In this document: piece by piece, positions 6,872 to 7,385 of the stretch
How the letters are laid out: each line of letters begins with the position of its first letter
How positions within the stretch are numbered: the stretch's first letter is position 1
Made by a program: the position numbers and the translations under genes
Notes under the pieces: generated by a model
What the model was told of the DNA's origin: nothing
Seen by the model: the letters and a program-made list of their open reading frames with translations, nothing else
Databases searched by the model: none
UHGV virus genome: UHGV-0143644
Direction: 5' to 3' (one strand)
Source: a virus
Length of the DNA stretch: 26,059 nucleotides

Positions 6872-7288
6872 TTATACCTCTGAATCAATATCAACCTGGT
6901 GGTGAGCAATGGTTTCAACCATGTACCGGATGTGTTCTGCCATGCGCTCCTGAAACCCAACATCGTCATCAAACGCACGGGTAATGGCTTTTTTGCTGGC
7001 CCCGTGGCGTTGCAAATGATCGATGCATAGCGATTCAAACAGGTGCTGGGGCAGGCCTTTTTCCATGTCGTCTGCCAGTTCTGCCTCTTTCTCTTCACGG
7101 GCGATCTGCTGGTAGTGACGCGCCCAGCTCTGAGCCTCAAGACGATCCTGAATGTAATAAGCGTTCATGGCTGAACTCCTGAAATAGCTGTGAAAATATC
7201 GCCCGCGAAATGCCGGGCTGATTAGGAAAACAGGAAAGGGGGTTAGTGAATGCTTTTGCTTGATCTCAGTTTCAGTATTAATATCCAT
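6872..7288 (-). CDS. gam: Gam, RecBCD inhibitor (138 aa)
   Basis: From [36 protein letters not shown]..., matching lambda Gam. The six-frame ORF runs further upstream, but the start was set at the lambda-equivalent ATG. Confidence 0.9.
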
Positions 7289-7385
7289 TTTTATAAGCGT
7301 CGACGGCTTCACGAAACATCTTTTCATCGCCAATAAAAGTGGCGATAGTGAATTTAGTCTGGATAGCCATAAGTGTTTGATCCAT
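7278..7385 (-). CDS. kil: Kil (host-killing, FtsZ-targeting), apparently truncated at 35 aa by a -1 frameshift
   Basis: [32 protein letters not shown] then NGY-stop. One extra A in the A5 run would restore ...[16 protein letters not shown], i.e. a 47-aa lambda-like Kil. Confidence 0.6.

Follow-up and report, generated by a model that had tools for sequence, protein, structure and literature searches.

The kil gene of a lambdoid Escherichia coli prophage, carried on the 26,059-nucleotide (nt) stretch of viral DNA UHGV-0143644 that we analysed as a whole (hereafter, the window), is shortened from 47 to 35 residues by one missing A. This is a known gene, lambda kil, with a lesion of a known kind, the deletion of one base from a homopolymer. 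The lesion amounts to a commonplace frameshift in a single copy (or to a read error) and represents no new kind of feature; the window kil neither defines a new family of Kil variants nor constitutes a contingency locus.

One missing A shortens kil

An exact protein look-up identified the window contig as NODE_78 of the ENA metagenome assembly ERZ1743317 (locus L124), with a k-mer coverage of 5.0. According to gene calls, the window holds the left end of a lambdoid E. coli prophage, in which the pL operon runs on the minus strand in the order N, (sieB), ral, ea10, cIII, kil, gam, bet and exo, and is followed by the immunity region, O/P, nin, Q and the lysis genes. The order cIII–kil–gam is that of lambda and of NZ_CP087377 (locus L121), the nearest complete genome. 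The features at and around the lesion are collected in Table 1.

Table 1 Features at the cIII–kil–gam junction of the window
Feature	Position	Strand	Remarks and basis
Truncated kil ORF	7278..7385	minus	35 codons + TAA; ORF list and translation
kil ribosome-binding site AGGAG	7395..7399	minus	Unchanged; read directly in the sequence
kil homopolymer	7288..7292	plus-strand T5 (A5 in kil sense)	One-base deletion site; six in lambda and all close relatives
Out-of-frame relic of the ancestral kil 3′ end	7243..7277	minus	Translation of L121 and lambda-type Kil P0001
cIII, 54 aa + stop, intact	7354..7518	minus	ORF and translation, PF02061 gene call, L121 PGAP
gam (GamS form), 98 aa + stop, intact	6872..7168	minus	ORF, gene call, L121 PGAP

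Translation of kil starts at an ATG (7385–7383, minus strand) 9 nt downstream of the AGGAG motif and halts at the TAA at 7280–7278. Residues 1–32 of the 35-codon product are residues 1–32 of lambda Kil, after which N-G-Y is added, so that the peptide ends …AYKNGY. The A6 run of the ancestral gene makes up codons 32–33 (AAA AAA). When the run is repaired to A6, the frame reads on through an 18-residue C-terminal stretch to a stop at 7245–7243, which gives the 47-aa lambda Kil; the relic would contribute 13 residues and the stop, were the run A6. A first-pass annotation of this DNA had placed the kil start as in lambda, with a 32-nt overlap with cIII, had read a halt after 35 codons (…AYKNGY) and had proposed that one added A restores a 47-codon frame matching the length of lambda Kil. 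All of this holds: cIII (ATG at 7518, end at 7354) shares 32 nt with the start of kil, an overlap that PGAP also annotates in L121, the TAA follows from translation, the effect of the added A is shown against lambda and near-identical prophages, and direct comparison with lambda gives the 47 aa.

The window and lambda share 99% DNA identity over 501 bases, and the start codon, the ribosome-binding site, the 32-nt cIII overlap and the flanking genes are the same, whereas a 15-residue C-terminal stretch of lambda Kil is replaced by NGY in the window product. NZ_CP087377 is 99.92% identical to the window over positions 4486–12885, with 6 substitutions and one gap in 8,401 columns, the gap being an extra T in the kil run. 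This gap is the sole indel across 12.9 kb against E. coli genomes of 99.9–100% identity. Chance is not at issue for the run. The kil tract is A6 in 194 of the 203 examined loci carrying it, and the window departs from it by one specific base.

The first-pass annotation had pointed to closely related prophages as the comparison to make, and had allowed that the 35-aa form might be conserved in the lineage. That it is the native, conserved form, like the 37-aa Kil of HK620, HK629 and Stx2a phages, is virtually untenable. Short natural Kil peptides exist and are active (PMC11762379), and the 35-aa product keeps the full Pfam domain. However, A6 and a 47-aa Kil are found in prophages that share 99.9% identity with the window, the natural short Kil ends …RKWRSK by way of a different downstream sequence with no frame shift, and in a collection of 15 billion proteins the exact 35-aa sequence occurs on 13 contigs, whereas that of the 47-aa form occurs on more than 1,000.

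The truncated peptide and its neighbours

Kil is predicted to adopt a helix-turn-helix fold whose core spans residues 4–38, with helix 1 at about aa 4–18, a turn at G19–D20 and helix 2 at about aa 21–38, and nearly all Kil homologues share an RSK/RSSK motif (PMC11762379). The 35-aa product matches the Pfam family PF06301 (Lambda_Kil) with 73.5 bits against a cut-off of 27.6 (E = 9e-21); positions 1–31 of the 31 in the family correspond to Kil residues 2–32, all of which are kept. An AlphaFold2 single-sequence model of the 35-aa peptide predicts a hairpin (pLDDT 92) with helices at 3–18 and 21–32, the second being six residues shorter than in the full-length peptide. Helix 1, the G19–D20 turn and two thirds of helix 2 are retained; what is lost is K33 and W34, together with the hydrophobic C-terminal part of helix 2 and the basic motif RSSK. 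Lambda-type Kil ends in a stretch of 16 residues and HK620/Stx2a-type Kil in RKWRSK, whereas the window product ends …AYK-NGY, with neither the conserved (K/R)33–W34 nor the C-terminal RSK/RSSK.

Two known short forms offer a comparison. The window product resembles the engineered KilΔC11 (lambda residues 1–36) in that it is C-terminally shortened and without RSSK, with the N-terminus, helix 1 and the turn kept. KilΔC11 retains K33-W34-I35-L36, whereas in the window product K32 is the last shared residue and three foreign ones follow. Kil 1–36 still blocks division, approximately 10-fold less well, with about 10 times more Z rings left, and removal of both Kil termini abolishes activity (PMC11762379). 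The window product is also like the 37-aa Kil of HK620, HK629 and Stx2a-converting phages (…EAYRKWRSK) in being short and sharing the same Pfam core. The phage peptides, unlike the window product, keep W34 and the basic RSK end; their tract reads AGA AAA, with no six-base homopolymer, and they are short through a different downstream module, whereas the window peptide is short through a frameshift. The region after residue 34 varies among the Kil peptides of lambdoid phages.

By analogy, the 35-aa Kil is probably a weakened or dead FtsZ/ZipA-directed division inhibitor; the activity that marks the family is a ZipA-dependent disruption of FtsZ rings, with filamentation as its effect. Where the first-pass annotation spoke of inactivation, the truncation stands and the loss of function stays an assumption, the whole Pfam Kil core being kept. 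Lambda without kil grows normally, with earlier lysis and a normal yield (PMC3961180). As lambda can grow without Kil and the deletion leaves cIII and gam intact, the prophage would be otherwise unaffected.

An alternative upstream start of gam, the ‘GamL’ ATG at 7288–7286, abuts the kil A run and is unaltered by the deletion; the GamS ATG has its own AGGAG Shine-Dalgarno sequence just upstream. We considered an effect of the kil deletion on gam and expect none, because at least 24 of 79 related loci have a disrupted GamL frame and the GamS start has a good Shine-Dalgarno sequence; gene callers and PGAP also use the 98-aa GamS start. The breaks in the GamL-to-GamS frame (7169–7288, minus strand) include an additional base near 7185 in 20 of the 79 loci and C4 in place of C5 at 7238–7242 in 4 of the 79, and this variable frame is consistent with the 98-aa GamS as the real product. 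The exact GamS allele of the window is very widespread (10,088 listed blocks). In many prophages it sits directly downstream of a Rac-type KilR, with no lambda kil; the boundary between kil and gam is thus a mosaic junction, and the two division inhibitors that occur at it, Kil and KilR, are unrelated.

Other parts of the window have peculiarities of their own. In ea10/DUF2528 (7591–7959, minus strand), the position of the lambda ea10 start codon reads ATA, and the first canonical start gives just 97 aa; the same ATA is present in NZ_CP087377, yet PGAP annotates a 122-aa protein there. The type III effector gene espL1 (66–1964, minus strand) directly adjoins the prophage integrase (2639–3847, plus strand), and this espL1/integrase block (positions 1–4485, 4.5 kb) is 100% identical in several complete E. 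coli genomes. Finally, a join at 12885/12886 lies within the O gene (12386–13303). To the right of 12885, complete E. coli genomes contain no close relative (best, about 81%), and no other contig in the entire protein collection encodes the 305-aa O protein that spans the join. The join is either a unique recombinant or a chimeric metagenome join.

Real deletion or sequencing error

We favour, with moderate confidence, a real, recent and private slippage deletion in kil over a low-coverage read error. The alternative is a homopolymer sequencing or assembly error, under which kil of the sampled prophage is intact, with A6 and 47 codons, and the few reads spanning the site dropped one A; we regard this as a lesser, though by no means negligible, possibility. 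The frequency of A5 in databases, the quality of the contigs that carry it and the state of the rest of the window bear on the two readings.

A5 and A6 alleles were counted by exact-pattern scans and short-query searches. A run-length survey of the kil tract found six bases in 121 loci, five in 11 and seven in 1. The A5 allele was absent from IMG/VR (A6 at least 120, A7 1), from metagenome contigs (58 with A6) and from GTDB representative genomes (15 with A6), and a 71-base query retrieved no exact A5 among 126 matched GenBank phage records. In complete E. coli genomes, where the same query matched 1,222 records at 1,351 places, there was 1 exact A5. This absence from four data sets favours an error, as does the nature of the lone complete-genome copy among approximately 1,350. 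It belongs to E. coli FELIX_MS516 (NZ_CP163516.1), whose assembly is error-ridden, 13 genes of that prophage being annotated as ‘frameshifted’. Its kil pseudogene, which PGAP labels ‘frameshifted’, shares the identical A5 allele with the window in the 71-base context. Unlike the window, which deviates at the kil run alone, FELIX_MS516 has 5 of 15 A/T runs shortened, an assembly-error signature.

The searches also returned matches of other kinds. The single A7 allele lies in L132 (IMGVR_UViG_2585427764_000010, 8542–8572), where the extra A joins Kil residues 1–33 to the GamL-extension frame (the fused stretch includes 14 residues read across the junction); this fusion frame stops before GamS. 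Furthermore, the lambda kil/gam junction turned up in GTDB representative assemblies (L205–L219) of unrelated species, labelled Shewanella, Pseudomonas, Neobacillus, Oceanobacillus, Kitasatospora and others. Several of these matches are on low-coverage contigs of about 48.4–48.5 kb, and the junctions are very probably contamination with lambda control DNA.

The 13 contigs of the protein collection that encode the exact 35-aa Kil represent at least six haplotypes. One of them, ERZ28588197 scaffold_282 (L126), is 100% identical to the window over positions 1–12885, A5 included, and probably comes from the same sample, since both contigs end at the same base; past 12885 it follows lambda/L121-type O sequence, unlike the window. 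The other A5 contigs comprise at least five further haplotypes that are 48–68 substitutions apart over 2.65 kb, and the allele is therefore recurrent.

Most A5 contigs beyond the window are visibly prone to homopolymer errors, bearing further A/T-run deletions, which again speaks for an error. In L122, L123, L130 and L133, between 2 of 8 and 5 of 15 A/T runs are shortened. L127 and L128 stem from neighbouring sequencing runs of a single strain (ERR4562441 and ERR4562442); an alignment of the two has 11 indels, every one in an A/T run, and 0 substitutions. Such a pattern, with no substitutions between two runs, indicates systematic homopolymer errors, and we therefore dropped ERR4562440, ERR4562441 and ERR4562442 as independent proof of a real A5 lineage. 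Three haplotypes differ from this picture. Among A/T runs of at least five bases, the window (together with L126) has 1 of 39 off the majority length in 4486–12885, and in L125 (1 of 34) and L129 (1 of 8) the A5 is the sole deviating run. The clean A5 on L125 and L129 suggests that real A6-to-A5 events do occur.

The state of the window itself supports a real deletion. Its remaining 38 A/T runs are of majority length, gene calls reveal no other split gene across the 26-kb contig, no other homopolymer indel is present in 12.9 kb compared with near-identical references (99.9–100% identity), and A5 is reproduced in a second assembly, L126. Against a real deletion stand the k-mer coverage of merely 5.0 and the fact that most other A5 alleles in databases are demonstrably homopolymer errors; in addition, L126 may come from the same reads as the window and would then be non-independent. 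The SPAdes-style naming of the contig suggests Illumina reads. Consensus errors in a 6-mer are very rare with Illumina, and this would argue against an error at the kil run.

An improbable hot spot for silencing kil, and what the truncation means

The first-pass annotation had left three options: a genuine inactivation, a slippage-prone tract or a homopolymer error. Of these, the slippage-prone tract finds no support in the comparison with neighbouring A6/T6 runs; deletion and error are only weighed against each other, as above. Comparable one-base departures turn up here and there in the A6/T6 runs of exo, gam and ea10 among the same loci, and there is no sign that the kil run is preferentially hit. 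Nor does the tract show the frequent length variation, beyond that of comparable tracts, by which a phase-variable tract is recognized (1 of approximately 1,350 complete-genome copies; 0 of 126 phages).

A stronger claim, that the A6 tract is a slippage hot spot acting as a switch or selection target that silences a toxic kil, with A5 recurrent and adaptive, is extremely improbable. It can draw on the presence of A5 on at least six haplotype backgrounds, three of them clean-looking, and on the toxicity of Kil upon prophage derepression (PMC3961180). However, six bases are short for a contingency tract, the approximately 1,350 kil copies of complete genomes include no credible A5, the neighbouring runs in exo, gam and ea10 deviate in a similar way, and intact kil is overwhelmingly conserved. 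A literature search for a published kil mutation hot spot at the run found none. It is likewise very unlikely that the A6 at the kil/gam junction is a natural hot spot by which resident lambdoid prophages repeatedly and independently silence or attenuate toxic Kil. If it were, the clean A5 alleles of the window, L125 and L129, which are unrelated haplotypes, would be real parallel events favoured in lysogens.

Two routes by which full-length Kil might still be made from the A5 allele were considered and set aside on the basis of the sequence. Programmed frameshifting would need a −1 shift on U-AUA-AAA-AUG-G, which appears to offer no X XXY YYZ site. For transcriptional slippage, five A’s would be far below the tract length known for RNA polymerase slippage.

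Under the favoured reading of a private deletion, the window kil would descend from a standard 47-codon lambda-type allele that lost one A·T pair from the A6 run at codons 32–33, most likely by replication slippage in the recent ancestry of a single prophage. Translation would leave the native frame after K32, add N-G-Y and then stop. The outcome would probably be a lowered or abolished division inhibition by Kil in a prophage otherwise as before.

For the Kil family, 35-aa ‘Kil’ entries in databases are almost always homopolymer errors and should not be counted as a variant family. The Pfam core ends exactly where the frame shifts, so domain searches alone miss the truncation. To the published series of truncations, by which the minimal active Kil is mapped, the 35-aa peptide would add one more point at little cost. 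Should the deletion be real, a single prophage has privately lost or weakened an accessory gene that is non-essential and toxic to the host, which would be an ordinary first step of prophage gene decay.
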